Shown piece by piece: positions 1,370 through 64,000 of a stretch of 64,000 nucleotides of DNA. The notes under the pieces are model-generated. The model searched no databases. It worked only from the letters and a program-made list of their open reading frames with translations, and was not told where the DNA came from. Position numbers and translations under genes: made by a program. The first letter of the stretch is position 1, and each line of letters begins with the position of its first letter. Origin of the DNA: Candidatus Eiseniibacteriota bacterium. GTDB taxonomy: Bacteria; Eisenbacteria; RBG-16-71-46; CAVPCR01. The stretch spans positions 576,001 through 640,000 of the forward strand of contig CAWGMA010000003.1 in assembly GCA_963823555.1 (NCBI GenBank), in the 5' to 3' direction.

Positions 1370-1444
1370 TCCTCGGTAGCTCAATGGTAGAGCAAGCGGC
1401 TGTTAACCGCTAGGTTGCTGGTTCGAGTCCAGCCCGGGGAGCCA
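1370..1444 (+). tRNA. tRNA-Asn (GTT)
   Basis: TCCTCGG/CCGGGGA acceptor stem, D-arm TAGCTCAATGGTAGAGC, anticodon arm GCGG-CTGTTAA-CCGC, T-loop GGTTCGAGTCC, encoded CCA. Confidence 0.97.
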
Positions 1445-1722
1445 TCGTCCGGAGTCGCGAGCTGCAAGCGGCTCCGTGGTTAACGCACGGCCCCGGTGGA
1501 GCGATCCGCCGGGGTCTCGTGTTAGCGCGAGATGTGGCACCGAGTTGCGCGCGCGCGCGCGGCGGGCGCGACTCTCTGTTTGCGAACCGTGCGAGTTGGG
1601 GGCCCGAGATGCGGTCGCGAAATGGGGCGGTGGGGCCCGAAACTCTCTCCCTCTCGGCGCGGGACGGAGAATTGGTGAACAGGACTGGTCTACTTGGTGG
1701 CCAAGTAGTACCGTCTTCGAAC
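1436..1722 (+). repeat. About 280-bp non-coding module R1, copy 1 (begins in the tRNA 3' end)
   Basis: Alignable by eye to 43432-43720 and 59130-59418; ends in palindrome CTACTTGG-N3-CCAAGTAG (1690-1708). Confidence 0.9.
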
Positions 1723-1754
1723 AACCTGGTAGTCTACGGCCCTGAGGCTGACCG

Positions 1755-2873
1755 GTGGAGAGCAAGATGGACAAGCGCGGCATGCTCATCCGGTTGACGG
1801 ACCTGGTGAACCATCCCGAGACCGAGAGCGAAGTTCGCATACGTGAGGGCCACCTTGACTGGGCGACCTCTGTTGTGCCTCTTCTTCCAGCCTGCATGAT
1901 ACTAACCTACATGCTGCTCATCGGTGCCGTAGGCACATCGAATGGCGAAACCCTGATCGATGACGTGGCTTCTCTATTGCTCGAGTATTATGATGCAGTC
2001 ATCTATGGCGAGGTCACGGGAATGCAGCCAAAGCACATCTACAACCTTAGTGGGCGCTGCACCTGGGTTACCGAGATTGAAATCCAACCACTTAGGCAAT
2101 TGTGGGGGGAATGCAAATCCGAGAAAATCCGAGTATTGACCCTGTCTTTGCCGGAAGACTTGAGGCAAGCGGGGCCAGGGGGTCCTCCGGGCTGTGCTTT
2201 CATAAGCCAAGGGTACCCCCCTCCTGAAGTCGGAGAACAGTGTGTATTCCTGCTAAGTGGACTTTCAGATGGCTATTTCAATGGGTTCCGGATTGCGAAA
2301 GATGCTACGTTTGTTGTAGCGGTCCAGCAGGATGTCATACCCGTGTCTAGTGACGGGACGTTGGCGATCTTTAAAGATGGAATGCAGCAAGAACGTCGTT
2401 GGGCGCTCGACGACTTCTCAGATGCTCTTGAGCGAGCAGCGAGTCGGCTCTCCCTGAGCAGCCTGATCCATAGATCATCTACCATAGCGTTGGTCAACCT
2501 GGTGGAACTTCATGGTGATCCTCGGGGAGCCTGGAGCCAGCGCATGGTAGTAGCAACTGCCTACAAGGGAACTGCCGCTGGGGACACGCTCGATTGCGAG
2601 GCCGATGTCACTCCTGGCGGGCAAGACAATGCAAGAGATGCACTGAAGGCTCACTATGCAGGAGTGCTGCTGTGGAAGCTTCAAAAGTCCAGGGTCAGGA
2701 GGGCGATCTACTTCGGTTGGACTTTGGGTCAGGCTACGGGTGAATCCACCAGTGGGCGGTGGGTCCCCGTCAATCAGGACGATGTCGTGATGCTCCCAAG
2801 TGCAGTACTGATAGATGGCCAAATTGAGCGTGCGCAAATCGCTCTCTCCAGCCTGACGGACGAAATTGAATGA
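1755..2873 (+). CDS. Hypothetical protein, possibly secreted (true start probably near 1896)
   Basis: 372-codon ORF of lower GC; hydrophobic stretch MILTYMLLIGAVG; no family recognised. Confidence 0.6.
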   Translation: MESKMDKRGMLIRLTDLVNHPETESEVRIREGHLDWATSVVPLLPACMILTYMLLIGAVGTSNGETLIDDVASLLLEYYDAVIYGEVTGMQPKHIYNLSGRCTWVTEIEIQPLRQLWGECKSEKIRVLTLSLPEDLRQAGPGGPPGCAFISQGYPPPEVGEQCVFLLSGLSDGYFNGFRIAKDATFVVAVQQDVIPVSSDGTLAIFKDGMQQERRWALDDFSDALERAASRLSLSSLIHRSSTIALVNLVELHGDPRGAWSQRMVVATAYKGTAAGDTLDCEADVTPGGQDNARDALKAHYAGVLLWKLQKSRVRRAIYFGWTLGQATGESTSGRWVPVNQDDVVMLPSAVLIDGQIERAQIALSSLTDEIE

Positions 2874-2950
2874 CTGGGAGGGACTCATCCCTGGGGCCTG
2901 ATCAAGGCGAGCTACGGGCAGTAGGCGGGCGGGGGCGCACGTCGAATCGC

Positions 2951-2980
2951 TTGACACACGTCCGCCCGACCCGGTAGTTT
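2951..2980 (+). promoter_or_regulatory. Putative sigma70 promoter for the recombinase operon
   Basis: TTGACA-18 bp-TAGTTT. Confidence 0.45.
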
Positions 2981-3169
2981 ATAGGCAGCAGCGTCGGCCG
3001 TAGACACGACGGCCATAGAAGACGACCTGTCACCAGACAGCGACCCGGCTGCGGAGCAGAAGGCGTTGTGGGTGTTGCTTCGGCACCCCGACGCCTTTTC
3101 CCGTCCTACCGCCGGAGCGGCACCCCCGACCCCTTCCTCTCCCCAGGCCGAGCGCCCTGGAGGGGATGG

Positions 3170-3391
3170 ATGGACTTCCTCCGAGACCCGGCGGTGATGA
3201 CGCCGGGGGAGCGGCTCACCGAACTGGCGGCGATCCTTGCCCAGGGGTACCTGCGGCTCCGCGCCCGACCCGAGATCGCGCTTCCCGCCGAGAGCGCCGA
3301 GAGCAGGCTGGACTCTCGGCCCGACCAGAGACCTCCATTGGACGCCGGGTTAGCGCCCGGAGACCCGGTTCGAGAGGAGGTCGTGGGATGA
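3170..3391 (+). CDS. Small hypothetical protein upstream of the DUF2924-like gene
   Basis: MTPGERLTELAAILAQGYLRL motif; ATGA coupling to the next gene. Confidence 0.55.
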   Translation: MDFLRDPAVMTPGERLTELAAILAQGYLRLRARPEIALPAESAESRLDSRPDQRPPLDAGLAPGDPVREEVVG

Positions 3392-3891
3392 AGGTGAACG
3401 TCGCCGCCGAATTCAGAGCTCTCGGGCGCATGACCGCTGGCGAGCTGCGGGAGAAATACCGGGCGGTCTTTGGCGAGGAGACGCGGTCGGGGAACCGGGA
3501 CTTCTTGCGGAAGCGGATCGCCTGGCGCATCCAGGCCCTGGCCGAGGGCGGCCTCTCTGAGCGCGCTCTCCGCCGGGCCGAGGAACTGGCCCGGGACGCC
3601 GACCTCCGCATCCGGGCGCCGAAGGGCGAGTCGTTCCCGAGCCATCCTGCTGCTGGAGACACGGTCGTCGGCCGGGTCAACGCGTCCCAGGATCGCCGGT
3701 TGCCGCTGCCGGGGACCGTGCTCGTGCGCCGGTATCGGGGCGAGACCGTCCAGGTGACCGTGCTCGACAACGGATTCGAGCACCAAGGCAAGACCTACAA
3801 GTCGTTGACGGCCGTCGCGCAGGCGATCACCAACACGCACTGGAACGGCTACCACTTCTTCGGCCTGCGCCGGAAGGGGGCCGCGTCGTGA
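3388..3891 (+). CDS. DUF2924-domain protein (recombinase-associated)
   Basis: LRKRIAWRIQALAEGGLS and PGTVLVRRYRG…YKSLTAVAQAITNTHWNGYHFFGL motifs; GGAGG RBS. Confidence 0.85.
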   Translation: MKVNVAAEFRALGRMTAGELREKYRAVFGEETRSGNRDFLRKRIAWRIQALAEGGLSERALRRAEELARDADLRIRAPKGESFPSHPAAGDTVVGRVNASQDRRLPLPGTVLVRRYRGETVQVTVLDNGFEHQGKTYKSLTAVAQAITNTHWNGYHFFGLRRKGAAS

Positions 3892-5468
3892 GCGCGAAGC
3901 GTGGGGGGAAGAAGAACGGCGACCCCGCGACGCCGTCGGTCGTCAGGTGCGCAATCTACTGCCGGGTGTCTGTCGACAGAAGCCTCGACAACGGTGCGTT
4001 CACGAGCATCGATGCCCAGAGGGAGGCTGCTGAAGCCTACGTCGGAAGCCAGAAGCAGAAGGGCTGGACCGCCTTGACCGCGCATTACGACGACAGCGGA
4101 TGCTCGGGCGGGACGACGGAACGGCCTGCGCTCCAGCGGCTTCTAGCCGACGTGCGGGCGGGGAAAGTCGATTCGGTCGTCGTTTACAGACTCGACAGGT
4201 TCTCCCGCAGCCTTCTCGACTTCTCCAAACTCATGGAGGTTCTGGGCCACCACCAAGCATCTCTCGTCAGCGTTTCTGAGGCGTTCGACACCGCGACCTC
4301 GATGGGTCGGATGGTCATGCATCTGCTTGCCACCTTCGCCCAGTTCGAGCGGGAGACGATCGCCGAGAGAACGCGGGATAAAATGGGTGCTGCACGACGC
4401 CGAGGCCGATGGACCGGCGGCCACTTGCCTTTCGGCTTCGACCTAGACCCCGCCGCCGGGCGCCTCGTGGTCAACAACGCCGAGGCCGAGCGGGTGCGGG
4501 CGATCTTCCAGATGTACCTGGAGAAGCACTCGACCTTCGAGGTCCTGCGGGAACTGGCCCGCCGCCGATGGACCACGAAGCGGTGGACGACGCGGAAGGG
4601 GGAGGAGCGCGGCGGGAGAGCATTCGACAAGTCGAGGCTCTTGTACCTTCTCAAGAACGTCGTCTACATCGGCAAGGTGCGGTACGACGGAGTCGTTCAC
4701 GACGGCGCACACGAGGCGATCGTGGACGCCGACGTGTGGCAGCGAGTCCAGATGCTTATCGGACGAAACGCGGTTACAAGCGGCAGCGCTTTCCGAAACA
4801 AGCACGGCGCATTGCTCGGCGGGATCTTACGCTGCTCGAACTGCGACTGCGCAATGACGCCTTGCTACACAACCAAGAACAACCGGAGGTTTCGGTATTA
4901 CACGTGCTTGGTCGCACAACGTCACGGCTGGAACAAGTGTCCTGCCCCGTCGATTCCGGCGACCGAGATTGAGCGGTTCGTCGTCGAGCGCATCCGCGCG
5001 ATCGGCGCCGACCCGGCGCTGCGGGCCGAAGTGATCGCGCAGGCGAAGGCTGCAAGTGCATCACGAGCCGCCGAGTTGGAGCGCGAACGCCTGGACGCGG
5101 AGCGCGAGATGCGGCGCATCGCCGGCGAGATCCGGAAGGCCCTCGGGCGCGTCGAGGGCGCCGGGAACGGCGGCTCGTCGGCCACGACGCGGCTGGCCGA
5201 GTTGCAAGAGCAGGTGGCAGCAGTCGAGGACCGTGCCCGTCGTGTCCGAGATGCAATCGCCGCCCTCAACGCCGACCAGATGGACGAGAGCGCCCTCGTC
5301 TCCGCGCTGGAGCGGTTCGACCCGCTCTGGGAGACGCTCACGCCGAAGGAGCGCGCGCGGGCGATCCACCTGCTGGTCGAGCGCATCGCGTTCGACGGCG
5401 GCCGGGGGACGATCGCCATCACATTCCGGCCGGGTGGGATCAAGGCGCTCGTGGAGGGATCGAAGTGA
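3888..5468 (+). CDS. Large serine recombinase (resolvase, recombinase, Zn ribbon, coiled coil)
   Basis: AIYCRVS catalytic Ser, DSGCSGGTTERPALQRLL, YRLDRFSRS, FAQFERE, YIGK, CSNC…YYTC. Confidence 0.95.
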   Translation: MSAKRGGKKNGDPATPSVVRCAIYCRVSVDRSLDNGAFTSIDAQREAAEAYVGSQKQKGWTALTAHYDDSGCSGGTTERPALQRLLADVRAGKVDSVVVYRLDRFSRSLLDFSKLMEVLGHHQASLVSVSEAFDTATSMGRMVMHLLATFAQFERETIAERTRDKMGAARRRGRWTGGHLPFGFDLDPAAGRLVVNNAEAERVRAIFQMYLEKHSTFEVLRELARRRWTTKRWTTRKGEERGGRAFDKSRLLYLLKNVVYIGKVRYDGVVHDGAHEAIVDADVWQRVQMLIGRNAVTSGSAFRNKHGALLGGILRCSNCDCAMTPCYTTKNNRRFRYYTCLVAQRHGWNKCPAPSIPATEIERFVVERIRAIGADPALRAEVIAQAKAASASRAAELERERLDAEREMRRIAGEIRKALGRVEGAGNGGSSATTRLAELQEQVAAVEDRARRVRDAIAALNADQMDESALVSALERFDPLWETLTPKERARAIHLLVERIAFDGGRGTIAITFRPGGIKALVEGSK

Positions 5469-5938
5469 CCACTGCGACACAGCGATTGGACCAGAGCGGC
5501 GGCGGCTCGTCGACCGTCGTGTTCAAGACTCACTTCCAGCGCGGGAATCGCGGCTGCCGCCGCCTGCGGGACGGCCCAGCGCCCGCGCCGCCGCCCGTCG
5601 AGCCGGGGCGCGTCCCGCGCATCAGCCGCTTGATGGCCCTCGCCATCCGCCTCGATGGGCTCGTCCGCTCGGGCGCCGTCCGCGACTACGCCGACCTGGC
5701 CAGGCTCGGACACGTGAGCCGGGCGCGGGTCACCCAGATCATGAACCTCCTAGCTTTGGCCCCGGACATCCAGGAGGCGCTCCTCTTCCTGCCGCGCACT
5801 GTCTCCGGCCGGGACCCAGTCAGGGAGCGCCAGGTGCGGCCGATAGCTGCCGTCGTGGACTGGGGGGGACAGCGCCGCCTGTGGCGGGATCTCCGGCACC
5901 GAGCGGGCCTGGACACCGAAGTGCAGGATGTCGCATGA
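5465..5938 (+). CDS. Hypothetical HTH-like protein coupled to the LSR
   Basis: PRISRLMALAI…DYADLARLGHVSRARVTQIMNLLALAPDIQE; GTGA overlap with the LSR stop. Confidence 0.8.
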   Translation: MTTATQRLDQSGGGSSTVVFKTHFQRGNRGCRRLRDGPAPAPPPVEPGRVPRISRLMALAIRLDGLVRSGAVRDYADLARLGHVSRARVTQIMNLLALAPDIQEALLFLPRTVSGRDPVRERQVRPIAAVVDWGGQRRLWRDLRHRAGLDTEVQDVA

Positions 5939-9064: not shown

Positions 9065-11578
9065 GTGCCGACGCCCGGCGACGGGGTGCCTGCCATGACC
9101 CCCGACCTCACCCTTGAAGGTGGCGTCGTCGAAAGCGGTGTCGGGAGGGCTTGCACCCACACGATGGCGCAACCGCAGGCGCCACCGAGCTACCGACTCG
9201 CCTTCACTGCCGAGGAACTGCGGGCTCGGCTTCCTGCCGAGCTTGTTGCACAGTCGCAGTGGGTTGCCTGGAGATTCGAGTGGCGTGATGGCAGGTGGAG
9301 CAAGGTGCCGGTCAATGCTCGCACCGATGGACGGGCCCGAAGCAACGATCCAAGTACCTGGGCCACGTTCGACGAGGCCATGGCCTTCCATGAGTGCACC
9401 CCAAGAAGCGCCGGCATCGGGTTCGTGTTCGCGGAGGCCGATCCGTTCGCCGGCGTCGACTTGGACGGCTGCGTGGCCGGGGCTGACCAGGAAGCCAGGG
9501 TCGAGGCGTGGGCCCGAGACTTGCTCGACGCCTTCGCGACCTATGCCGAGATCTCGCCGTCAGGGCATGGCGTCAAGCTCTTCCTCCAAGGGCGAGCCCC
9601 GCACAACGGACGCCGGGCTGGGTACCCGGTCGCGGGATCGGCGGTGGAGACGTACGACCGCACGCGCTTCTTCACGGTGACAGGGCTTCGGGTGCCGGGA
9701 ACGCCCCAGGTGCTTGGGGATGCCCAGGGTGCTTTGGACGACCTCATCGCCAAGGTGTGGCCGGTGCCCCAAGGCAACCGAGATGAGGAGATCCCAGCGG
9801 CTGCCCTTGCCGTCGACGATGAGGCGCTGGTCGCCGCCGCGCTCCGTGCCCGCAACGGCGCTGACTTCGAGCGGCTGTGGGCAGGCGACTGGAAGGGTCG
9901 CTACGGGTCGCCGAGCGAGGCCGATCTTGCTCTGTGCGGAATGCTCGCGTTCTACACGGGATCCGACCCCGAGCGGATCGCCCGCCTCTTCCAACGCTCC
10001 GGCCTCTGCCGCGAGAAGTGGCAGCGCGCCGATTACCGGGAAAGAACCATCACGAAGGCCCTCGACGGCCGGACCGAGTTCTACAGCGGGCCGAGGGCCG
10101 TGCTCGTGCTGCCGCCGTCGAATGGCGGTCATCCATCCCGCGCCCTGACATCAGGCAAGGATAGAAGGCGGGGGAAGCGGAGCGCGCGTCGTGCGGTTGG
10201 CGCAGGCGATCCCAGCCGGTTCTGGGAGGGGCGAGCGTTCCGTCCCGCGCTCCTCGCCGATGAACTCATGGCTCTCGACTCCTACATCTCCACTCCCGTA
10301 GCTGACGATGGTGTGGGCGCCTTCCTCTACGCCTACCGGGATGGCGTCTACCAACGTGCGGAGGAGGTCGCGAGTAAGAAGGCCGAGTCCCTCCTCGGCG
10401 TGCGCGCCGCAAATGCGCGCATCGAAGATGCGGTGAAGCTGATACGCCGGCGGGCCGCGAGCCCGCACGACGATCTGAACCCGAGCGGGCTTGACCTCAT
10501 CAATGTCCAGAACGGCATGCTCGACTGGAAGACGGGGAAGCTCAAACCCCACGATCCAACTTGCCTCTCCACGATCCGCATCCCGGTGCGGTTCGATCCC
10601 GCCGCCAAGTCGGAGATCATCGACCGAGTTCTTCAAGACTGGCTTCCGGGTGACGCGCTCGACCTGGCCGGAGAGATGCTCGGCTACCTGCTCATCCCGA
10701 CCCGCAAGCACCAGACCGCGTTCATGCTGGTCGGGGAAGGGGAGAACGGAAAGTCCACGTTCATCAATCTCACCCGTAGTCTGCTCGGGCGCGGCAATGT
10801 GTCGAGCGAGACGCTCCATGATCTGGAAGAGAACCGCTTCCGCGTGGCCTCGCTCTTCGGCAAGCTGGCGAACCTCTGTGCAGACATCGACGATCGGGCG
10901 CTGCAGTTCACGAGCGTCTTCAAGAAGATCACCGGGGACGACTCGCTCTCGGCCGAGCGCAAGCACCAGCACCCGTTTGACTTCGATCCCTTCGCCCGTT
11001 TGATCTTCTCAGCCAACACTCCCCCTGCCCCGCGCAACGACCGCACTCACGCCTTCTTTCGCCGCTGGGTGGTCGTCCCCTTCGACAACAAGTTCCGCGA
11101 CGGCGAGAAGCGGGACCGAGATCTACCGAAGAAGATCACGACCCCGGAGGCGCTCTCGGCCTTGCTCAATATCGCCGTCGCCGGGCTGCAGCGGCTGGAG
11201 GCGAGGGGCGAGTTTGCCCTGCCCGAGTCGGTGCGGCAGGCGGGTGAGAAGTACCGGCGGGAGGCCGACGCCGTTTACACGTTCATCAGCGAAGAGTGCG
11301 CGAAGGGCGGTCAGGATGCCCGCGTCTCTGCCACCGACCTCCAGAGATCGTTCCGCGCCTGGTGCGCAGAGAACGGGTACCGGAACGTTCCCCCGAAGAA
11401 GGCCCTGGAGCGGCAGTTGGTCGAACTGCTCGGCGCGGAGAAGGAGCGAGCACGGGTCGGGGGACGCAAGAACGCCGTGGTGGTTTGGCGCGGCATCACG
11501 TGCTCGTACTCACCCCCGGCCCAGGGGGAGGCCGGGGCGGATGGGTCCTCCCTGGCGCCGGAGGACCGGTGGCCATGA
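9065..11578 (+). CDS. Primase-polymerase (NrS-1/AEP-like) fused to a P4/D5-type SF3 helicase
   Basis: WVAWR…KVP, GIGFV…GVDLDGC, YAEISPSGHG, RFFTVTG, SEADLAL; INVQNGMLD; Walker A GEGENGKST; IFSAN, FFRRW; start may be 9094 or 9163. Confidence 0.92.
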   Translation: MPTPGDGVPAMTPDLTLEGGVVESGVGRACTHTMAQPQAPPSYRLAFTAEELRARLPAELVAQSQWVAWRFEWRDGRWSKVPVNARTDGRARSNDPSTWATFDEAMAFHECTPRSAGIGFVFAEADPFAGVDLDGCVAGADQEARVEAWARDLLDAFATYAEISPSGHGVKLFLQGRAPHNGRRAGYPVAGSAVETYDRTRFFTVTGLRVPGTPQVLGDAQGALDDLIAKVWPVPQGNRDEEIPAAALAVDDEALVAAALRARNGADFERLWAGDWKGRYGSPSEADLALCGMLAFYTGSDPERIARLFQRSGLCREKWQRADYRERTITKALDGRTEFYSGPRAVLVLPPSNGGHPSRALTSGKDRRRGKRSARRAVGAGDPSRFWEGRAFRPALLADELMALDSYISTPVADDGVGAFLYAYRDGVYQRAEEVASKKAESLLGVRAANARIEDAVKLIRRRAASPHDDLNPSGLDLINVQNGMLDWKTGKLKPHDPTCLSTIRIPVRFDPAAKSEIIDRVLQDWLPGDALDLAGEMLGYLLIPTRKHQTAFMLVGEGENGKSTFINLTRSLLGRGNVSSETLHDLEENRFRVASLFGKLANLCADIDDRALQFTSVFKKITGDDSLSAERKHQHPFDFDPFARLIFSANTPPAPRNDRTHAFFRRWVVVPFDNKFRDGEKRDRDLPKKITTPEALSALLNIAVAGLQRLEARGEFALPESVRQAGEKYRREADAVYTFISEECAKGGQDARVSATDLQRSFRAWCAENGYRNVPPKKALERQLVELLGAEKERARVGGRKNAVVVWRGITCSYSPPAQGEAGADGSSLAPEDRWP

Positions 11579-11583
11579 CCCAA

Positions 11584-11701
11584 GTGTGTCGGTTGTGTCG
11601 ATTGTGTCAAAACCGCCTACTTCTCTCCCCGTTAAACAGTGCACTGGAAGCGCGTATAGGAGAAAAGTGGGGGGGACCGACACAACCGACACAATCGACA
11701 C
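11584..11701. other. Putative replication origin: two inverted sets of three 9-bp iterons
   Basis: GTGTCGGTT-GTGTCGATT-GTGTC at 11586-11608 and its near reverse complement at 11679-11701, directly after the helicase stop. Confidence 0.7.
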
Positions 11702-11991
11702 AGCGAGAGAGAAGGCAGGTACGACCCGTGGCCACCCACGGGTCCATAGCCGCCATGACGTGCGGCGCGCAGAAGTGAAGGCGATGCTGGCGGATCCCGC
11801 CGTTGCTGGCAGTGCCTTGACGAGGGCTGTCGCGGGATGCCTGGACTGGCAGCGGCACATGCTCCAAGTGCCCGAAGCGGTTCCGAAGGGCGACGCCCTA
11901 GGCGGATAGGAGATAGCCAGGGCTGGGACCGAGAACCCTACCGGCGTCAGTACGGGCCCACCCGGTTCCACGCCCCTCGAGGAGACAAGAG

Positions 11992-12531
11992 ATGCCTGAT
12001 CACATTACGGTTCGCGATACGTCCACCCTTCCCCCGCACAAGGAAGGCCAGTTTGCCGCCATTTGCGCCGACGTGATTGATCTCGGCCAACGCGTGGAGA
12101 CCTACCCCGGCTCCTCGCCGCGTGTCGTGAGGAAGGTGGGTCTGGTCTTCGTCACGACCGAGCACCGCCAGGATGGCAAACCCAGCACAGTGAGTACTGA
12201 GTTCACCGTATCCATGAACGAGCGAGCGGGTCTGCGGCGGTTCCTCGAGAGCTGGCGTGGGCGGTCCTACACACCAGACGAGACGGCGGGCGATGCTCCG
12301 TTGCGTCGCCTGGTCGGGCAACCAGCTCTTCTCACGCTCGAGAATCGGTGCAGTGCCAAAGGACGGAACTACGCCAAGATCGCGAGCATCGCGCCCTTGC
12401 CGAAGGGCAAGCCAGCCCCTGAGGTTAACGGGTACCGGCGCTCCCTTAGCTGGGAAGAGCGGAAGAAGCTCTATGAGGCCGAGGTGGCACGCCACATGGC
12501 GGGTCCTGGTGCCACCGCCGTGGGGCAGTGA
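11992..12531 (+). CDS. Phage replication / ssDNA-binding-like protein
   Basis: GAGGAG RBS; AICADVIDLG…FTVSMNERAGLRRFLESWRG…LVGQPALL…YAKIASI pattern of phage OB-fold proteins. Confidence 0.7.
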   Translation: MPDHITVRDTSTLPPHKEGQFAAICADVIDLGQRVETYPGSSPRVVRKVGLVFVTTEHRQDGKPSTVSTEFTVSMNERAGLRRFLESWRGRSYTPDETAGDAPLRRLVGQPALLTLENRCSAKGRNYAKIASIAPLPKGKPAPEVNGYRRSLSWEERKKLYEAEVARHMAGPGATAVGQ

Positions 12532-12610
12532 TAGAGCTCGTGCACGTTGCTTACGCCTTCCAGGATTCAGGCTCCTGGCAATCACCGGACCAGAGCTGAG
12601 GAGAAGAGAA

Positions 12611-12961
12611 GTGTATAGAGAAGAACGCGAGACGGTGATCGTGGCCAACCTGGCCGATCTCGACGACGGCTTCTTCACCGTTGAGACCACAGAGAAAGGC
12701 GTGCTGGCTCGCCTGCGCCGCCTGGCCGGCGACCGCCTTCAAGTCGAGGGAAATCGGCCCTGGCTGTGCCGGGTCCCCGCTGACCTGTGGCGGGGGAACG
12801 CGCTCAGGGTCGGACGGCGCCTGAAGGCGACCGGGAGACCTTTCCAGAATCGCGTCCAGGCGTCAGGAACCCCGCGCACCGGCGCAAATCTGGAAGGGAA
12901 CGGTGTCGACCCGACCACAGGTATGGGTCGAGAGGATTCGCATGCAGAACTCCTGCAGTAG
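12611..12961 (+). CDS. Hypothetical protein
   Basis: GTG start downstream of GAGGAG, within ORF 12257..12961. Confidence 0.45.
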   Translation: MYREERETVIVANLADLDDGFFTVETTEKGVLARLRRLAGDRLQVEGNRPWLCRVPADLWRGNALRVGRRLKATGRPFQNRVQASGTPRTGANLEGNGVDPTTGMGREDSHAELLQ

Positions 12962-13018
12962 GAGCAAGCGAGACGGCCCCCGCGTCACCGGAGGCCGTCG
13001 AGCGGGGACAGGGTCGTG

Positions 13019-13297
13019 CTAGCCGGTAGCCGCCTCGGTCTCGCTGAGGATCGCCTGCAGGGTCGGCACGTCCCGCCGTGCGGCAGCCAGGGCCACGGCG
13101 CGGACGAACCGGCTCGCCCGGGCCGGGCCTGCTGCGTCGTGGATCTCGTCGCGCTCGTCGGCCGAGAGCCTGAACGCGAACACGACCAGGTCCTCGGACG
13201 CCTTGGCTTTCGGCATCACGGTCTCGGTAGTGGCCTTCTTGGTCGCCGCCTCAGGGGCGGTCTCTTCCGTCGTGGCTGCTTGCTTCTTCGTACTCAT
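13019..13297 (-). CDS. Small ribbon-helix-helix-like protein
   Basis: GGAGG RBS; VVFAFRLSADERDEIHDAAG…SRFVRAVAL. Confidence 0.6.
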   Translation of the reverse strand: MSTKKQAATTEETAPEAATKKATTETVMPKAKASEDLVVFAFRLSADERDEIHDAAGPARASRFVRAVALAAARRDVPTLQAILSETEAATG

Positions 13298-13386
13298 CTC
13301 ATTGCCCTCCGTACCCGGCCCCACGCCGGGCGTGCAACAACAAGGGCGCTGCTCGGGGACAACATCAAGGTAAAGAGAGGAAGAAA

Positions 13387-14797
13387 GTGAGGACCGCAAG
13401 GTCGCGAAAGCTCGCGCTTTGGTCGGCCCTGCCGCCGTATCTCGGTGGTAAGCGCCGCCTTGCCCCGCTCATCTTCCGGGAGATCGACCGCCTCATCCCG
13501 CGCCGCCACTGGCGCGGACTCACATTCCTCGACGGGTTCCTCGGCGGCGGGTCGGTCTCGCTCTACGCCAAGGCGCAGGGATTCACGGTCGTGGCGACCG
13601 ACATCGCGGAGCGGGCAATCACGGTAGGGGAGGCGCTCATCGCCAACTCGCGGGTTCGGCTGACCCGAGAGGACGTGCTTCGGTTAGCGAAGGACGATGG
13701 CGAGGCACCGGGCCGGGTCGAGACCGGATACGTACCGAGCACTTTCACGAAGGACCAGGCCCGCTTCCTCGACCGTGCTCTCGGGACCGCCGCTCGAAAC
13801 CCCCGACACCGCGAAGGCAGCACTCATCCGGCTGCTGGCTATCCGCGTCGCGCTGCTCGCTCACCCGATGAGCCAGGTGCGGGCGGGGACCATCCACCGA
13901 CTCTCGTCGGGCGAGTACGAGTCGATCACCGAGAGCTGCCGCTATCACTACGTCGACGGGTTACGGCTCATCCGTCCTGGGAAGTTGTGGGACCTGGCGC
14001 AGCAGTTGAACGCGGGTGTGTTCCAGGGCGAAGGCAAGGTGATCCACGCGAGCATTCTCGACGTGCTGCCAACAGTCGACGCCGCAGTAGTCTACTTCGA
14101 CCCGCCATATCCTGGCGTCATGTCATACGAGAAAGAGTACAAAGTCATCGACGAGATTCTCGAAGGCCGGTCTCGGCCGACGAGCCCGTTCACCGCGCGG
14201 GATGGCGCAACGATGCTCGACGCGCTCTTCAAGCGGGCGCAGCACATCCCGGTGTGGCTCCTGTCGCTCGGGAACGCGGTGGTCACGATCGAGGAGTTGG
14301 CGGCGAAGATGGCGCGCTTCGGTCGCCAGACCAAGGCGATCGCGATCCGGTATCAGCACCTGCCTGCCGTGGCGACCGAGGAGAAGAAGCGCGAGAACCG
14401 CGAGTTCCTGGTCGTGGGGTGGGATGCGGAGGCTCCGCTGCTTCGGCGGTCGTCAGTGCAGGGTGACCGGGCCGGCACCGGGATCGATCAGCCGAACCGA
14501 CTCGCCATCGTCGAGGATGACGCGAGCCTCGGTGGCACCGAGCTTCCGACCCTCAAGCCCAGCCTCGGCAATGGCGGTGAGAAGAGCAAGGCGAGCCTCG
14601 CCGAGAAGGCGGCTTCCAGCCTCGGGCTTCCCGTCCGGGTAGCGCAGGATAGCGTGGATGACCCAGGTGCCGGCGTCATCGAACCCGGCCTGGACTTCGA
14701 CCGTGAAGGGCGAGCTGTCGTCTTGCCGTCCCATGACCCAGACGTTCCCTTGGCAGGCGGCGCCGAGTCAAGCCGCACGAAGGAGAAGAGACTGTGA
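13387..14797 (+). pseudogene. DNA adenine methyltransferase (D12 class), frameshift near 13790
   Basis: PYLGGK and DGFLGGGSV in frame 13387; YFDPPY in frame 13697. Confidence 0.85.
14453..14734 (-). CDS. Hypothetical protein, antisense to the methylase tail
   Basis: Globular-looking 93-aa ORF; the overlapping methylase tail lies beyond the conserved domain. Confidence 0.45.
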   Translation of the reverse strand: MGRQDDSSPFTVEVQAGFDDAGTWVIHAILRYPDGKPEAGSRLLGEARLALLTAIAEAGLEGRKLGATEARVILDDGESVRLIDPGAGPVTLH

Positions 14798-17585: not shown

Positions 17586-17880
17586 ACGATAGGCGGCTCC
17601 GGAAGCCTGAGCTGGCCCGGGCAGAGGCTCTTGGGGCGGTCGCTCCTCAGTGGCGTTTCGAGGCGGGGACGACCGTGGTAGCATGTGAGAGGCTCGCAGG
17701 ACGGTTGATTGAGGAGGGCTACGCTCATGTCGTTGTCGAAACTCATACTCGCCGTTGGCTCTGTTCTCGTCATGACCAGCGCTGCGGACGCGGCTACGAT
17801 CCGCGTTCCATCAGAGCAGCCTACCATTCAGGCGGGGATCAATGCCGCGACCAACGGAGATACCGTGCTTGTCGCGCCTG

Positions 17881-37338: not shown

Positions 37339-37339
37339 A

Positions 37340-46470: not shown

Positions 46471-46656
46471 GGGAACGCCTCCCCGGCAGAGCCTGGCCAG
46501 CGGCCGGAAGCGAGTCTTGCGTGGCCATCGGGTAACCGGTGTCGGGGGTCAGCCTGGTGGTGGGCAGCGAGAGGGCGGGTTCGGGGCTGCCTATCGCGGA
46601 CTCCCTTGGCAAAGGGGCCATAGGAAGGCTCGGCAGGGCGGTCGCAAAGAGAGAGA

Positions 46657-56730: not shown

Positions 56731-59070
56731 ATGAGTGCATTAACACACGGCCGGGCACTTCACCGCTGGCAAGCCACCAGAGCAGGTTCCCCTTGGCGCC
56801 ACGGCTGGGGACTTGCTCTTGCTCTGGCGTTGGCGTCCACTCCCAGCGCCGCCCTGACCATTCTGGTTCCTGGGAATGCCCCGACGATCCAGGGGGGAAT
56901 CGATCTTGCCGCCCCAGGCGACACCGTCGTTGTTGCCGCGGGTATCTACACAGGTGCTGGCAACCGTAGCCTCAACTTCTCCGGCAAGGCGTTGGTACTG
57001 CGGTCGGCGGCTGGACCAGCAGCCACCACCATCGATTGCCAGAACCTTGCTCGGGGCTTCGTGTTTGAAACAGCGGAGACGCCCCTCACAATCGTTCAGG
57101 GCTTCACGATTCGGAACGGTCTCGCAGCACTTGATTATGGCGGGGGCATGATCATGTCCGGCTCATCGCCTACCATTCGCGACTGCGTCATAACGAATAG
57201 CCATGCCAACAGTGGTGGTGCTCTCTTTCTCAGCCAAGCGTCACCGCAGCTCGAGGGATGCACGCTCTCGGCCAACAGCGCCGACAACTGGGGCGGGGCC
57301 ATCTATTGCGAGAGCTCCTCTCATCTCACCTTCACTGACTGTGTCGTCGCTGACAACTCCTCGGCGATGGGCGCCGGCATCTACGCGCTTGCCGGCACGG
57401 AACTCGCGATCAGTCGCTGTAGCTTCATGCGGAACATCCCGGTGAATCTCGCTGGAGGTATTTTCGCCCAGGGTGCCACGGTTGGCATCAGGGGTTCCAG
57501 CTTTAGCGCAAACGAAGGCAAGTATGGAGGTGGCATCTACGGCATCGACGGATGCTCAGTCACCGTGGATAGTTGCTCCTTTTCAATGAATGTCGCGGAC
57601 TTCGCCGGTGGTGGATTGTACACAGACCAATCGTCTCTGTCTCTGGCCGGGTGTACATTCCAGGGCAATCGAACCACGACGGAGGCCCCTCCAGGCATCA
57701 ACGGGGGAGGGGCCGGTCTTCACGCCGAGACCTTTGCCTTGCCCACTGCTGTCTTCTCGATGTCAGACTGCGTGTTCACGGATAATGAGACCTTCGGTGC
57801 CGGTGCCGATGGGGGAGGTGCGTTCGTCAAATTCGGTCAGACCCCGCGGATGACAGTGGAGCGCTGTGTCTTTTCGGAGAATCATGCGGATCGATATGGC
57901 GGAGGTGCGCGCGTATTTGGCGCTCCATACACGATTCGGGACTGCGCATTCAGCGGCAACACGGCTGGCAATGATGGGGGTGGGCTCGAGGCCAGCGGGG
58001 GGGTGGGTCAGGAGTGTCTCATAGTCGACTGCGTGATCACCAACAATCACAGTGGTACACGGGGGGGCGGGCTAGAACCCGGTGCCGGCAGTGGGTCGCT
58101 GACAATCTCCGGGTGCACCATTGCAGAGAATACCGCGGCGATTGAGGGCGGAGGAATCCGGTATCTTGTCTCCCCTACCGTCACTTCCTCACCAACGTTG
58201 TTGATCGAGAGCTGTCAGTTTACCCGGAACAGCGCTGGCCAGGGGGGCGGTGTCTACGTGCGGACCGGTTCGCCGTATGGTACTGGGGACACGAGGATCA
58301 CCAATTGCCTGTTTGATCGGAATGCGGCCACGATGGGCGGTGGGATCGCTGTCATGCCGCATCAGGGTAACGGTGCCGCTAGCATTGAAGGCTGCACATT
58401 GGTCAACGGTGCTTCGCCGGACGGGGGAGGGCTCAAGGTCGGCTCACTCTATGGGACATGGGGGAGCCGGACGGTCAGCGTCGAGGTCGCAAACTCGATC
58501 ATCGCATTTGGCGAAGCCGGGGTGGCAGTGAGTGTCGATACGCTGAGTACGGCTGTGCTGTCTTGCACGGACATCTTCGGCAATGCGGGCGGCGATTGGA
58601 CCGGACGGATCGCCGACCAACTTGGGATCAACGGTTGCTTCTCGGCGGACCCGCTCTTCTGCAATGCGGTGGCTGGAGATTACACACTGGCGGAAACCTC
58701 GCCCTGCGCCCCCGCGCATTCGCCGGTAGGGTGCGGGCTGATCGGGGCTCACCCGGTAGCGTGTGCGGCACCGATCGGGGTGGCGGATGAGGGAGCGCCG
58801 AGGATTGGCCCGCTCCTGCGTGTGCTGCCGAACCCGCTGCGGGGGGCGGGGACGATCGAGTGGATGGGAGCAGGGGTCGCGTCTGAGTTGCGGCTCTACG
58901 ACGCCGCAGGCCGACTGGTGGCGAGGCAGAGGGGTGAGGGCAGCCGCGGCCGGATGTCGTGGAGCGACCTGACCAGAGGCGGTGATGTGGCTTCAGGGGT
59001 GTACTTTCTGGAGTTGGGGTCGGACGGTGGAGGAGTGGCTGCTCGGTCGCGGCTCGTGGTGATTAGGTAG
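56731..59070 (+). CDS. Large secreted beta-helix protein with CTD
   Basis: VPGNAPTIQGGI…; many CxFxxN…GGG repeats; PNP…SGVYF. Confidence 0.92.
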   Translation: MSALTHGRALHRWQATRAGSPWRHGWGLALALALASTPSAALTILVPGNAPTIQGGIDLAAPGDTVVVAAGIYTGAGNRSLNFSGKALVLRSAAGPAATTIDCQNLARGFVFETAETPLTIVQGFTIRNGLAALDYGGGMIMSGSSPTIRDCVITNSHANSGGALFLSQASPQLEGCTLSANSADNWGGAIYCESSSHLTFTDCVVADNSSAMGAGIYALAGTELAISRCSFMRNIPVNLAGGIFAQGATVGIRGSSFSANEGKYGGGIYGIDGCSVTVDSCSFSMNVADFAGGGLYTDQSSLSLAGCTFQGNRTTTEAPPGINGGGAGLHAETFALPTAVFSMSDCVFTDNETFGAGADGGGAFVKFGQTPRMTVERCVFSENHADRYGGGARVFGAPYTIRDCAFSGNTAGNDGGGLEASGGVGQECLIVDCVITNNHSGTRGGGLEPGAGSGSLTISGCTIAENTAAIEGGGIRYLVSPTVTSSPTLLIESCQFTRNSAGQGGGVYVRTGSPYGTGDTRITNCLFDRNAATMGGGIAVMPHQGNGAASIEGCTLVNGASPDGGGLKVGSLYGTWGSRTVSVEVANSIIAFGEAGVAVSVDTLSTAVLSCTDIFGNAGGDWTGRIADQLGINGCFSADPLFCNAVAGDYTLAETSPCAPAHSPVGCGLIGAHPVACAAPIGVADEGAPRIGPLLRVLPNPLRGAGTIEWMGAGVASELRLYDAAGRLVARQRGEGSRGRMSWSDLTRGGDVASGVYFLELGSDGGGVAARSRLVVIR

Positions 59071-59129
59071 GGGGGCGAGCGCCGGGGGCCGCGGCAGAGA
59101 CGGAGAGTGGTTCGCATACCGTCCCATTT

Positions 59130-59418
59130 GGGGAGCCATCGTGCGGAGTCGCGAACTGCAAGCGGCTCCGTGGTTGACAGGAGACCCCGACGGAGAGATC
59201 CGCCGGGGTCTCGTTCTTATGCGAGAAATGGCACCGAGTTGCGGGTGCAAGCGCGGCGGGTGCGACTCTCTGTTTGCGAACCGGGGGAGTTGGCGGCCCG
59301 AGGTGGCGTCGCGAAATGGGCGGTTGGCGGGCGAAACTCTCTCTTCCACGGCGAGAGTCGGAGAACTGGTTAACAGGTGTGGCCTACTTGGGGGGCCAAG
59401 TAGGACGGGTTTCGAGAA
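59130..59418 (+). repeat. Module R1 copy 3 with att-like core
   Basis: GGTTCG-N15-GGGGAGCCA (59109-59138) followed by R1 sequence. Confidence 0.9.
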
Positions 59419-60120: not shown

Positions 60121-60507
60121 GTGAAGGCAAGTGTTCTCTTCGTGATGCTCGTGACAATGGTGGGACTGAGCTACGGGGTGTGCGCGGCGCAACCCGATTG
60201 TACGAACGTCTACCTGAAGATCTACGATCCAGTAAGCGATCCACCGTGTGGGGACCAATCCGGCGTGACCACGGGTTGGTTCATCCACGTGACTTCGTCG
60301 CCGTCCTCAGTCAATGGTGGGACGTGCTCAACGTTCTCGCTCAACCAGCTCTACGCCGACGTTGACTTCTTTAACACTCTGGGCTGCGGCACGCAGCATG
60401 TCTTTACCTGTGACATCGCAGCGAGCTCAAGCATCCTTTCCGGATACTACGAGCTTGATGACCTGGGTGATGGCTGTTTCCGGGTGTGTGAGACATGCAC
60501 CCCGTAA
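60121..60507 (+). CDS. Small secreted Cys-rich protein
   Basis: GGAGG RBS with GTG start; AQPDCT…DPPC…SILSGYY…GCFRVCETCTP. Confidence 0.8.
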   Translation: MKASVLFVMLVTMVGLSYGVCAAQPDCTNVYLKIYDPVSDPPCGDQSGVTTGWFIHVTSSPSSVNGGTCSTFSLNQLYADVDFFNTLGCGTQHVFTCDIAASSSILSGYYELDDLGDGCFRVCETCTP

Positions 60508-60593
60508 GGAGGGGGAATCGGAGCCTCAAACTATGGGGACTGCGCGATTCGGTCCCCGGAGCTAGGGCGAGCGCATTGAGTCGTCAGGGACGA

Positions 60594-62795
60594 ATGGACT
60601 ACATGGGAGCTATACTAATCTCTGTCTTCCTGCTTCAAACGACAATCATCGCACCGGCTCTTGGAGGAATAGTTCATGTCCCTTCGGAGCAATCGACCAT
60701 TCAGGAGGGGATCAACACTGCCGCACTTGGTGATACCGTCCTCGTCGCTCCGGGAACCTACGTTGGCGCCCTGAACCGTAACCTCGATTTCGGTGGCAAG
60801 AACTTGGTCCTCCGATCCTCCGGGGGCGCTGCCATCACGATGATCGACTGCCAGAGCCAAGGTCGTGCGCTGCACTTCCACAGCGGCGAGTCGGTTGCTG
60901 CAATGGTGGAGGGTTTCACGATCCGAAACGGACTTGCTGCCGGCACCGTCGGCGGTGGGCTGTTGATCGAAGGTGGAGCGACGCCGACTATCAAAGAATG
61001 CCACCTGGAAGCGAATCACGCGATCACGGGTGGTGGGGTCTTTGTGGCTTCGGCGGTGACGTTGATCGACTGCGATCTCGAGGGAAACATCGCGGACAAC
61101 TGGGGCGGTGGGATCTACGCCGAGAGCGCCATACTGAGCGCTCGGGGCTGTGCGCTGACGCGGAACGGAGCTGGGATCGGTGCCGGGATGTATGTGACGC
61201 TCGGCACCACGGCAATGGTGTCCGACTGTAACTTCACGGAGAACTCGCCTGTGAACCGGGCAGGAGGGATTCACGGGTCGGGGTCGTCGTTCATCGTCCA
61301 GAGGTGCAGCTTTGTCGAGAACACGGGGCGGGAGGGAGCGGGAATGTGGCTTCTCGGAGGGACCGCGACCATCGATAGCTGCACTTTCATCATGAACATG
61401 GCGCAGTTCAGCGGAGGTGCAATACGGGCGGAGGGTGTAGAGGGCTTCCGGCTGACTGGGTCAATGCTGAGAGATAACACTGCGCTTGAGCATGAGATTG
61501 GCTACGACTTTACGGGCGGAGGGGGACTCGCCTATCGGAACAGAGGGGCGCTAAGCGTCGGACCCTACATAGCTGACAGCATATTCCTCGCAAATCGGGC
61601 CCTTGGACTGCCTGCGATTGGAGTTGGAGGATACGGTGGTGGCATGCGGATTGCCAGCGGATCGGGCGACAGCTTGCTTGTGGAGCGCTGCCAGTTCATC
61701 GGCAATCATGCCGACGACGTTGGGGGAGGGGCGGACGCTCCCGGAGTCTATCGGAGCTGCATTTTCGAGGGGAATAGCGCCAACGCCTGCGGAGGCTTGA
61801 GTGGCGGGCTCGAGCTGAGCGACTGCCGATTCACGGACAATCATGCGCTCACTGTGGGTGGAGCGTGCATACCGAGCCGTGGCATCATCATTCGCTGTGA
61901 GTTTTCTGGCAATTCTGCGAGTCAAAACGGAGGGGCTTTGCGGTGGGTGTATTTCAGCCCTCTATTCATTGAGGACTCGCGATTCGCGGACAACTATGCG
62001 AACCAGGGGGGCGGCGTCTTCATGTACAACGTGGATCCGGCCTCGATTACGGGATCTACATTCGAAGGCAACACGGCTACGACCGACGGCGGCGCCCTGA
62101 GCATCTGGGGGCCGGCATCTCCAGCATCTGTTACGCTGTCGGGCTGCACCCTGGTAGGAAACAGCTCACCGGTAGGAGGGGGCGTGTCGGTGAGGATACC
62201 GGTCAATATAGAGAACACGATCATCGCCTTCGGCATGGAGGGGGAAGCAGTGACCTGCATGGGCGACGGAGTCGGCGTGATGTCGTGCACTAATATCATC
62301 GGAAACGCCGGCGGCGATTGGACGGGATGCATCGCCGACCAACTCGGGATCGACGGGAACTTCTCGGCGGACCCGCTCTTCTGCAATGCGGTGGCTGGAG
62401 ACTACACGCTGGCGGAAACCTCGCCCTGCGCCCCCGCGCATTCCCCGGTAGGGTGCGGGCTGATCGGGGCTCACCCGGTGGCATGTGCTGAGCCGATCGG
62501 CGTGGCGGATGAAGGAGCACCAAGGATTGGCCCGCTCCTGCGCGTGTTGCCGAACCCGCTGCGGGGGACGGGGACGATTGAGTGGATGGGAGCAAGGGTC
62601 GCGCCTGAGTTGCGGCTTTACGACGCCGCGGGTCGACTGGTGGCGAGGCGGAGCGGCGAGGGGGGCGGTGGCCGGATGTCGTGGAGCGAGCTGACCAGAG
62701 GCGGTGATATGGCCTCAGGGGTGTACTTCTTGGAGCTCGGGACCGGCGGCGGAGGTGAGGTGGCTATTCGATCGCGGCTAGTGGTGATCAGGTAG
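60594..62795 (+). CDS. Large secreted beta-helix protein with CTD, paralog of 56731..59070
   Basis: Same architecture; last about 160 aa nearly identical. Confidence 0.92.
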   Translation: MDYMGAILISVFLLQTTIIAPALGGIVHVPSEQSTIQEGINTAALGDTVLVAPGTYVGALNRNLDFGGKNLVLRSSGGAAITMIDCQSQGRALHFHSGESVAAMVEGFTIRNGLAAGTVGGGLLIEGGATPTIKECHLEANHAITGGGVFVASAVTLIDCDLEGNIADNWGGGIYAESAILSARGCALTRNGAGIGAGMYVTLGTTAMVSDCNFTENSPVNRAGGIHGSGSSFIVQRCSFVENTGREGAGMWLLGGTATIDSCTFIMNMAQFSGGAIRAEGVEGFRLTGSMLRDNTALEHEIGYDFTGGGGLAYRNRGALSVGPYIADSIFLANRALGLPAIGVGGYGGGMRIASGSGDSLLVERCQFIGNHADDVGGGADAPGVYRSCIFEGNSANACGGLSGGLELSDCRFTDNHALTVGGACIPSRGIIIRCEFSGNSASQNGGALRWVYFSPLFIEDSRFADNYANQGGGVFMYNVDPASITGSTFEGNTATTDGGALSIWGPASPASVTLSGCTLVGNSSPVGGGVSVRIPVNIENTIIAFGMEGEAVTCMGDGVGVMSCTNIIGNAGGDWTGCIADQLGIDGNFSADPLFCNAVAGDYTLAETSPCAPAHSPVGCGLIGAHPVACAEPIGVADEGAPRIGPLLRVLPNPLRGTGTIEWMGARVAPELRLYDAAGRLVARRSGEGGGGRMSWSELTRGGDMASGVYFLELGTGGGGEVAIRSRLVVIR

Positions 62796-62845
62796 GCGGG
62801 CCGAGCACCGGAGGACGAGTAGAGGGCGCCACAGAGGCGGAGAGT

Positions 62846-63088
62846 GGTTCGCAAACAGTCCCACTTGGGGAGCCAAATGTGGCTGTCTGCGAGGCGAGAT
62901 GGGTACGGTAGTCCGTACCACACCTCGACCGTCAGGCGGTCATGAACGAGCACCTTCTTCACTACTTGGTGGAAGAGGTGCTTCTTTTGTGGGTTCGTTC
63001 CGGCGGCCATCACCTGCTCGAAGTCGTCGATGAGTGCGGCAACTCGCTCGCGGTCAAGTGCGGGCAGTTCGAGTTGCTCGACAGCCAT
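62846..63088 (-). pseudogene. 3' remnant of the second LSR reading through an att-like site (core 62867-62875)
   Basis: [28 protein letters not shown]…HIWLPKWDCLRT; near-identical to 46657-46860. Confidence 0.78.
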
Positions 63089-63390
63089 GTGTTATCGATC
63101 AAGGGACACAGCTACCGGCTGCGGGAACGCACCCTGGCCACGACCCAGGCCCCTGCTCTCGCCCCGGCCTGAGCAGACTCGGAACCAGAAAGGAGGTCAG
63201 AACTTACCGTGATCAGCCCGGATCCTCAGCAGGGGTGGTCCACTTTTCGCCGTTCACCTTGGACCAGTTTTCAATGTTCGTTGACAATCGCTAGCTGAGC
63301 ACCGTCCCCGACCCCGAGGGGACATCGAACCCGACGATCAGGGGACATCTTAACCCGGTGATTCGGGGACATGCCGATCCGACGTTGACA
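63085..63390 (+). mobile_element. IS21-family scars: istB 3' end with right end (to 63286), and a second end with three GGGGACAT (to 63390)
   Basis: HVLSIKGHSYRLRE; both ends finish in TTGACA. Confidence 0.75.
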
Positions 63391-63771
63391 AGAGAAAGTG
63401 CTGCAGCGCATGCCCGTAGTGCCCGGTCGCCTCCAGACCGAATCGCACCTCGCTGCTGCCACTGGCAGCGCGCGCCAACTCGACCCGCTCCAACAGCTTG
63501 GCGAACCCCTCCCGGTCGTTGCTGAAGGAGAACGGCCGCTGAAAACGGCCGTCAGGAAGCCGGATCGCGGCCACGTGGCGTCGCTTTGCCACGTCGATGC
63601 CCACCACCAGCACACCGGACTTGATCGGAAGCCGACCGTTCGCTTTACTCGCCATGGGACTGCCTCCTCGTTGCTCGAGCCAAAGACCTTACGACCTTCG
63701 ACTCGGCAGCTTGGGACAGTCCTCCTACTTCTTCAAGACTGCCGTCTCCCCGCCTGTCCGCTTATAGCACT
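63391..63771 (-). mobile_element. IS110-family element: left end and truncated transposase (start 63655)
   Basis: VGIDVAK…FSNDREG…GLEATGHY RuvC-like DEDD N-terminus; GAGGAGG RBS; TATAAG just inside the left end. Confidence 0.88.
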
Positions 63772-63815
63772 CTCCCCAAGTGGGACGGTTTGCGAACCAT
63801 TCTCCGCCTCTGTGG
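63772..63815 (-). repeat. att-like left arm and partial core, interrupted by IS110
   Basis: Minus strand GGTTCGCAAACCGTCCCACTTGGGGAG, then IS110 sequence in place of CCA. Confidence 0.85.
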
Positions 63816-63848
63816 CGATCTCTACTCGTCCTCCGCTACTCGGCCCGC

Positions 63849-64000
63849 CTACCTGATCACCACAAGCCGGACCCGAGCAGCCACCTCTCCGCCGCCGTCC
63901 GACCCCAGCTCCAGAAAGTACACCCCTGAGGCCATATCACCGCCTCTGGTCAGCTCGCTCCACGACATCCGGCCACCGCCCCCCTCACCGCTCCGCCTCG
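63849..64000 (-). CDS. 3' end of a third beta-helix/CTD paralog (partial)
   Basis: Reverse-complement match to 62645-62795. Confidence 0.85.
   Translation of the reverse strand, partial: RRSGEGGGGRMSWSELTRGGDMASGVYFLELGSDGGGEVAARVRLVVIR

Follow-up and report, generated by a model that had tools for sequence, protein, structure and literature searches.

The window analyzed here is a 64,000-nucleotide stretch of Candidatus Eisenbacteria DNA (G000:C3:576001-640000), taken from a 4.6-Mb metagenome-assembled genome of four contigs (C1-C4); the same-genus and same-family relatives of this genome are also titled Ca. Eisenbacteria. Near its left end lies the single tRNA-Asn gene of the genome (anticodon GTT, 1370..1444, + strand), which was the sole find of an Rfam search over the window. 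A long, repeat-rich stretch of lower GC follows. The last nine nucleotides of the gene, GGGGAGCCA (1436-1444), recur along this stretch as the core of a series of junctions. We describe these junctions, the units between them, and the large serine recombinases (LSRs) that may have produced them.

Cores and arms of the array

On the + strand, GGGGAGCCA occurs at 1436, 43432, 46678, 59130, and 62867. A sixth core on the - strand (63777-63772) consists of the GGGGAG portion alone. With 77 copies in the whole genome, a 64-kb window should hold 1.07 on average when both strands are counted, versus the five observed, and the cores listed in a preliminary description of this DNA are accordingly real and non-random. 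The spacing given in that description was also seen throughout: all five junctions have the form GGTTCG-N15-GGGGAG, versus GGTTCG-N10-GGGGAGCCA in the tRNA gene, and a scan of the window for spacings from 8 to 19 gave no others. Genome-wide, GTTCG-Nk-GGGGAGCCA gave eight matches at k=15 and none or one at each other k from 8 to 22. A matrix built from the five window junctions retrieved nine genome sites at 43.6-55.4 bits, with the next best at 19.7. Four of these nine sites lie outside the window, where C2 ends and C4 begins. The two contigs overlap there at 98.6%, and C2:716470 and C4:6870 are consequently one locus counted twice. These contig ends hold a second cluster of three junctions (C2:696579-716470 and C4:1-9414), with a broken DUF2924-LSR pair and a terminase and no tRNA.

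In LSR sites, the distance from the zinc-domain motif to the crossover is 5 bp shorter for attB than for attP (PMC3783163). GTTCG stands at N10 in the tRNA and at N15 in all junction arms, a 5-bp shift that identifies the tRNA T-arm and acceptor end as a B half-site and each left arm as a P half-site. Judged by this geometry, the left arms are attP half-sites and not the mimics of a tRNA 3' end for which they had been taken. The same geometry and the association with LSR genes described below support the earlier proposal of site-specific crossover at the 3' end of tRNA-Asn by a large serine recombinase.

Left arms fall into two classes (L2 and L3) and right arms into two (R1 and R2), and arm alignments bore out the claim that all four pairings are present. 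Junction 2 (43405..43440, +) joins an L2 half-site and core to R1, and junction 3 (46651..46686, +) joins L2 to R2. Junction 4 (59103..59138, +) is L3 with R1, and junction 5 (62840..62875, +) is L3 with R2. Junction 6 (63772..63804, -) is inverted and consists of an L3 half-site and GGGGAG, interrupted by an IS110 element. Breakpoints were mapped by aligning the arms around the cores. The right arms part exactly at CCA, with R1-R2 identity stopping at +9/+10 in an anchored extension, and the tRNA and the left arms part at the first G of the core (leftward match, 0-10 nt). Similarity had been said to switch at the core. This holds for both of these comparisons; however, owing to their common attP half-site, L2 and L3 are still alike over the 27-42 nt that precede the core.

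Left arms and R2 form imperfect inverted repeats around the GA at positions 4-5 of GGGGAGCCA (centre 4.5), as in LSR att sites with a central dinucleotide. Pairing reaches 14/24 at junction 3 and 17/24 at junction 5, which are therefore attP-like, and 13/24 and 15/24 in the congener G001; random right arms reached at least 13/24 pairs in 360 of 20,000 trials. Positions 1-2 are not the same in the tRNA core and in the junction cores of several relatives, which also places the crossover further right. We predict that crossover in the tRNA-Asn gene occurs at the GA at 1439-1440. When four junction strands were folded in the manner of attC sites, only the symmetric L3/R2 junction beat shuffled sequences (z -3.65; others -0.05 to -1.61), as did one of the two distal sites of R1.

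Two recombinase families at one target

Read on the minus strand, R2 is the C-terminus of an LSR that enters the core as WLP, as had been noticed earlier. On the basis of this reading and its homologues, R2 is the P' half-site together with the 3' stub of an LSR gene that targets tRNA-Asn. Identity to R2 is 87% for an LSR of G001 that is frameshifted and nearly whole, and 80% for one of G002. Both copies in the window are cut. In the first (46678..46833, -), the upstream part is replaced by a small tyrosine-recombinase fragment (approximately 46858-47030). The second (62867..63080, -), which carries the 87% identity to the G001 gene, is cut at 63081 by the end of an insertion sequence (IS; 63081-63286). 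A copy of this end with 100% identity lies at C3:426599-426804, and we take the element, from its motif, to be istB.

R2-type LSR genes adjoin tRNA-Asn in G033, in G002, and in one Planctomycetota contig. At least 233 database sequences belong to the family, and C-terminal peptides that we read by eye as tRNA antisense occur in 61 of 120 homologues among the matches listed. We examined 16 loci in viral contigs, one partial locus of 17 being excluded. ARAGORN identified a tRNA-Asn in six of these loci, and a full LSR stands at a non-tRNA junction in two, one of which has the exact GTTCG-N15 arm. An ACCGTCC-type P pattern had no match in the viral contigs. The R2-type gene is nearly whole in G001 and full-length in viral contigs. 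An intact copy was sought in G000 and not found, and at E 1e-60 the seven matching genomes among 206 Eisenbacteria genomes did not include G000. Full-length LSRs tied to the site are LSR1 (described below) in the window and R2-type LSRs beside tRNA-Asn in relatives and viral contigs.

Two further observations concern this family. The tRNA-Asn of G002 (L118:1094-1465), followed directly by an R2-type LSR, contains a 297-nt anticodon-loop intron according to ARAGORN; the 3' end of this intron resembles that of a group I intron. In addition, tRNA-Asn-like 3' halves with N10 spacing, located away from any whole tRNA and followed by R2-type arms, were found in G001 (L004/L010) and G096 (L207:6887 and L204); they may be portable attB-like sites.

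R1 occurs in three copies on the + strand (1445..1721, 43441..43717, and 59139..59415) and contains a hairpin. Behind the first copy lie a 372-aa cargo open reading frame with no Pfam match (1755..2873, +), which separates R1 from the leader of the following genes, a DUF2924 gene (3388..3891, +; PF11149, E 8.7e-45), and LSR1 (3888..5468, +). LSR1 is an intact protein of 526 aa with Resolvase, Recombinase, and Zn-ribbon domains and a YCRVS motif, and is the sole uninterrupted LSR found in the genome. It is coupled to a gene for a 157-aa helix-turn-helix-like protein (5465..5938, +), a candidate accessory factor. LSR1 and the R2-type LSR are only 27% identical. R1-type ends lead from tRNA-Asn into DUF2924 and an LSR in six of 30 DUF2924 loci, and a seventh locus (C2 of G000) begins at a P core. 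R1 is thus the left end of elements of a second family, which carries DUF2924 and an LSR, and represents a drifted P' end; LSR1 is probably, but not certainly, its cognate enzyme. R1 was also considered as a native tRNA trailer. This was rejected: many relatives have plain hairpin trailers, and R1-type ends run into DUF2924-LSR genes.

Complete R1 copies are closed by an inverted P-like half-site (1701-1722, 43697-43718, and 59396-59417 in the window). In six copies, it matches at 17-21 of 22 positions, versus a random maximum of 14 in 300 windows. It sits inside a palindrome of the CTACTTGG/CCAAGTAG type, and the G007 copy agrees with the P arm of G007 itself at 21/22. This half-site may serve as an operator or be a second att site. 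In G065, an R1-like arm forms a symmetric junction (19/24) with a different P type of its own. Att sites and a crossover point are hence predicted for two uncharacterised LSR families, and an LSR whose sole requirement is the conserved half-site of tRNA-Asn could serve as a broad-host integration tool.

Units, cargo, and distribution

Outward from the tRNA, the cores delimit units A (42.0 kb), B (3.2 kb), C (12.5 kb), and D (3.7 kb), followed by a decayed unit E. Unit A, with genes on both strands, contains a satellite- or phage-like core (9065..17896, +) with a P4-family primase (9065-11578), a D12 methyltransferase, a small terminase, and a frameshifted gpA terminase. Its cargo zone (17973..42703) holds seven genes with secretion-type ends, including a beta-helix protein, a PD40 protein, two S8 peptidases, and FlgD-Ig proteins, intermixed with IS and small tyrosine-recombinase fragments. 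Neither the core nor the matrix scan found an att core within this zone. The cargo of unit B (44230..46191, +) had been taken for a secreted protein; instead, the domain search identified a glycosyltransferase-like membrane protein with PMT_2 and TPR domains. The distal part of its L2 arm includes a probable fragment of domain I of a group II intron (46473..46577, +; RF02005, E 0.022, below the gathering score), of which the portion 46483-46524 is common to many unrelated contigs.

The L3 arms follow a family of beta-helix genes. One, encoding a protein with a C-terminal domain like those of the type IX secretion system (56731..59070, +), stops 60 nt before the core at 59130. The cargo of unit D, a beta-helix/PMP-repeat protein (60495..62795, +), stops 72 nt before its core. 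A further member reaches the window with its 3' end (63849..64000, -; whole gene C3:639849-642083), with its stop 72 nt before the inverted core. Together with C2:704286-706487, these are four paralogous genes with stops 60-72 nt before a core and four different right neighbours. Their last ~600 nt are 80-95% identical and the remainder 38-78%. The common part may therefore be better regarded as a module of sorting domain and attP than as a whole cassette of recent origin, and the combination of a similar C-terminal sorting domain and att module with divergent N-terminal passengers suggests domain swapping or conversion. The preliminary description had att sites punctuating the secreted-protein genes of the array. 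This is not borne out for most of them: only two of the four units carry a single gene, one of these genes is not secreted, and most secreted genes are not individually bounded by att sites.

The 5' part of a beta-helix gene is duplicated at 99.5% identity in two different units (17881-19453 and 47872-49444); three independent runs give the duplicate good coverage. A small tyrosine recombinase (~200 aa) is represented by many broken copies, at 26093-27771, 31523-33245, 37337-37554, 46858-47090, and 51464-51844. The copies have a doubled start motif ~170 nt apart, and others occur at further plastic loci and in G001 and G062. This recombinase is possibly a small mobile element of its own.

The inverted core is only partial because the left end of a truncated IS110 element (63350..63771, -; DEDD_Tnp_IS110 reading frame 63350-63655) adjoins it. 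The transposase domain matches PF01548 at E 1.8e-13, and most of its 85 longer homologues combine PF01548 and PF02371. The core at 63772 was also considered as an insertion at a pseudo-attB site, which was rejected once the IS110 end was recognised there. In the IS110 family, a guide RNA in the non-coding end matches the target. The left end of this element (63655-63771, -) holds CGGGGAG (7 nt) and the reverse complement of GAGCCAAA (8 nt), namely, the two sides of the core. Both matches occurred in none of 5,000 shuffles of this end, with the targets picked post hoc, and the predicted fold puts them in separate places and not in one loop. RNA-guided targeting of the att core by IS110 would be a lead only. 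A second copy with context was not found in the 206 genomes at E 1e-60 or in the viral contigs; in 151 genomes, two context matches besides that in G000 covered 28-60 nt of the query.

The scan of relatives recovered the junction motif in 43 of 206 Eisenbacteria genomes (three with a reversed control), often around recombinase-less units of 1-6 kb. In a census of 26 inter-core units from 12 genomes chosen for several cores, 12 units were shorter than 7 kb and contained no LSR; three of the 26 contained one. A metagenome scan yielded 39 loci. When five loci from relatives were added, 31 of 44 had neither a known L class nor R1 or R2, and many ran into ordinary, unrelated trailers. Two motif loci lie 1.6 and 2.5 kb from tRNA-Asn and have no LSR match. 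The arm swaps described earlier recur in independent assemblies: L2a occurs with R1 and elsewhere with a plain terminator, L2b has R2 in the window and R1 in L136, and L4 has R1 in G000 and R2 in G001. Metagenome contigs L136, L140, and L152 also contain L2-R1 junctions. GTTCG-N15-GGGGAGCCA is thus a precise, searchable signature of a tRNA-Asn integration hotspot in approximately one-fifth of Eisenbacteria genomes and in other phyla.

Origin of the array and its likeness to known systems

We consider it likely that the array is a composite tandem island, to which LSRs of at least two families added elements in series, each site-specifically at the tRNA-Asn 3' end, and which IS elements and tyrosine recombinases subsequently eroded. 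Its recombination chemistry is well supported. The right half of the target would be the unconstrained tRNA trailer, so that the tRNA joined to a resident P' could be accepted as attB. Each newcomer would land beside the tRNA, while older units would shift outward and decay, leaving behind P × P' hybrid junctions in any L/R pairing. The small units may be recombinase-less derivatives that keep both ends and could be moved in trans or in cis. The only intact LSR lies in the tRNA-proximal unit A, and both R2 stubs further out are cut, which fits outward ageing with unit A the youngest. A further prediction is cis recombination between the tRNA site and the attP-like junctions at 46678 and 62867, by which blocks could be lost with no directionality factor involved; the apparent absence of the cognate LSR may explain why these junctions persist. 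The mixed pairings follow from two element families integrating serially at one target. Therefore, of the earlier claim that repeated crossover added and shuffled cassettes, serial accretion stands, whereas ongoing shuffling is not needed.

Several observations weigh against this interpretation. The L × R1 junctions of G000 are asymmetric (5-8/24 at centre 4.5, the background level), which weakens any assignment of units A, B, and D to a particular LSR. Moreover, leaving aside the two loci of G000, 22 of the 30 DUF2924 loci have neither tRNA-Asn nor a core in their upstream DNA, which spans at most 1.5 kb and less than 0.75 kb in five of them. Hence, only a subset of the DUF2924-LSR family uses tRNA-Asn, and LSR1 is not proven to be the cognate enzyme. 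The use of attL as attB would also depart from textbook LSR directionality; the array makes testable the general question of how unidirectional serine integrases build tandem arrays if attL is no substrate. Finally, no excised circles, empty sites, or joints at cores were seen in four runs, although these were low-depth and searched as contigs, which says nothing on circles.

A more far-reaching proposal is a cross-phylum, serine-integrase analogue of integrons at tRNA-Asn. CcrB-like LSRs with a relaxed right half-site would use attL as attB, and internal attP-type junctions would excise without a directionality factor. Recombinase-less one-gene units, each a sorting domain and attP module with a variable secreted passenger, would be actively captured, excised, and reordered, and an RNA-guided IS110 would have evolved to target the same core. 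Taken as one claim, this seems to us unlikely.

We also regard as improbable the narrower idea of a true cassette system, in which a resident LSR captures and reorders recombinase-less units of 1-6 kb as single genes. Internal P × P' junctions would act as attP, recombine in cis with the tRNA site, release units without a directionality factor, and allow their reinsertion beside the tRNA, with an integron-like function. The census speaks for this idea, since nearly half of its units are small and LSR-free, as do the four L3 beta-helix genes with their different right neighbours and the same left arms with different right arms in independent assemblies. However, IS and tyrosine-recombinase debris lies between R and the gene within units, and the L3 genes are alike in their last ~600 nt only and thus are not recent whole-cassette copies. 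Furthermore, unit A has no internal core among its seven secreted-type genes, the four runs gave no joints at cores, and an intact R2-type LSR was not found in G000. If small units do move singly, they would be a serine counterpart of integrons.

The pairings might instead have arisen by homologous recombination, IS-driven rearrangement among repeats, or long-read mis-assembly. The region is indeed dense in repeats and IS fragments, the assembly has frameshifts and a duplicated contig end, and the L3 3' ends look homogenised. However, new L × R classes would require crossover within the 27-42-nt common stretch. An independent contig also spans the junction at 62867 with no differences over 514 nt, so that the suspicion of an assembly chimera is not borne out; this bridge and the re-pairing of arms across assemblies, including the L2-R1 junctions in metagenome contigs, argue against chimeras. 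Since the N15 geometry and the symmetry are also left unexplained, these explanations are largely refuted and very improbable. Last, that small tyrosine-recombinase genes made the array as an integron or a tyrosine-integrase tandem island is hardly credible: several such fragments lie in the window and the genome has an intact IntI, but the window fragments are broken and not tied to cores, the IntI gene and the attC-like site near it are ~560 kb distant, and the junctions have the geometry of serine-integrase sites.

The composite island favoured here would be known in kind; less probably, it is an active serine cassette system. It works like the Dehalococcoides ssrA islands and the staphylococcal cassette chromosome (SCC) composites and resembles tycheposon islands, but is a member of none of them, since its target differs and its LSRs fall far below Ccr cut-offs. 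The ssrA-specific islands of Dehalococcoides (DsiB) are arranged in tandem behind a single structural RNA gene, at its 3' end (PMC3146451). As in those islands, an LSR gene overlaps attL with a C-terminus that varies with its neighbour, some islands lack an integration module, and the cargo is relevant to the lineage (PMC3146451). In the present array, the reverse-strand LSR overlapping attL is the R2-type gene and not LSR1, which points away from the tRNA. The differences are a target of tRNA-Asn and not tmRNA, two LSR families at one site, a repeat identity with the RNA of 9 nt versus 20 bp, and a cargo of secreted beta-helix proteins and peptidases. The tmRNA gene of G000 lies on contig C1, and the matrix scan gave no P half-site there.

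Likeness to SCC/SCCmec and the Enterococcus cassette chromosome (CcrAB/CcrC; PMC13739063, PMC6222049) lies in LSR-made tandem units with internal att sites and a central GA, in several similar half-sites with one host-gene half-site, in recombinase-less (ccr-less) units, and in the position of the newest unit nearest the target. In contrast to SCC, the target is tRNA-Asn and not rlmH, and the core is GGGGAGCCA, with no TATCATAA core. The best match among Ccr proteins was CcrB, against which the two LSRs scored 169.7 and 212.5 bits versus a cut-off of 900. Prochlorococcus tycheposons (bioRxiv 10.1101/2020.12.28.424599) share the tRNA anchor, successive integration, cargo along with primase and terminase-type modules, and remnants scattered outward. 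However, tyrosine integrases serve 910 of 937 tycheposons, and partial copies of the tRNA are left behind, unlike the LSR attP half-sites found here. The main text of Durrant 2022 (PMC10083194) does not contain the word "tRNA" and hence does not cover this target. A published description of a tRNA-Asn LSR array was not found in the literature searched, as far as its accessible parts extend; supplements and the TIGER/Islander database may hold such islands.

The array is closer to staphylococcal composite cassettes than to an integron. Integrons (IntI/attI/attC) consist of ordered small recombinase-less units beside one platform recombinase, with the newest unit first, and the array resembles them in this order. 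It differs in its serine, not tyrosine, chemistry, in the lack of attC hairpins, in units that measure 3-42 kb and have genes in mixed orientation in place of co-oriented single-gene cassettes, and in a platform at a tRNA. The term "integron-like" applied to it earlier does not hold, since neither IntI nor attC is present at the locus: a simple scan for RYYYAAC...GTTRRRY gave no site in the window versus one near the IntI gene. A real and separate integron does occur in G000, comprising an intact IntI (C3:15024-15962), the sole one above the TIGR02249 cut-off, and an attC-like site at C3:8567-8626.

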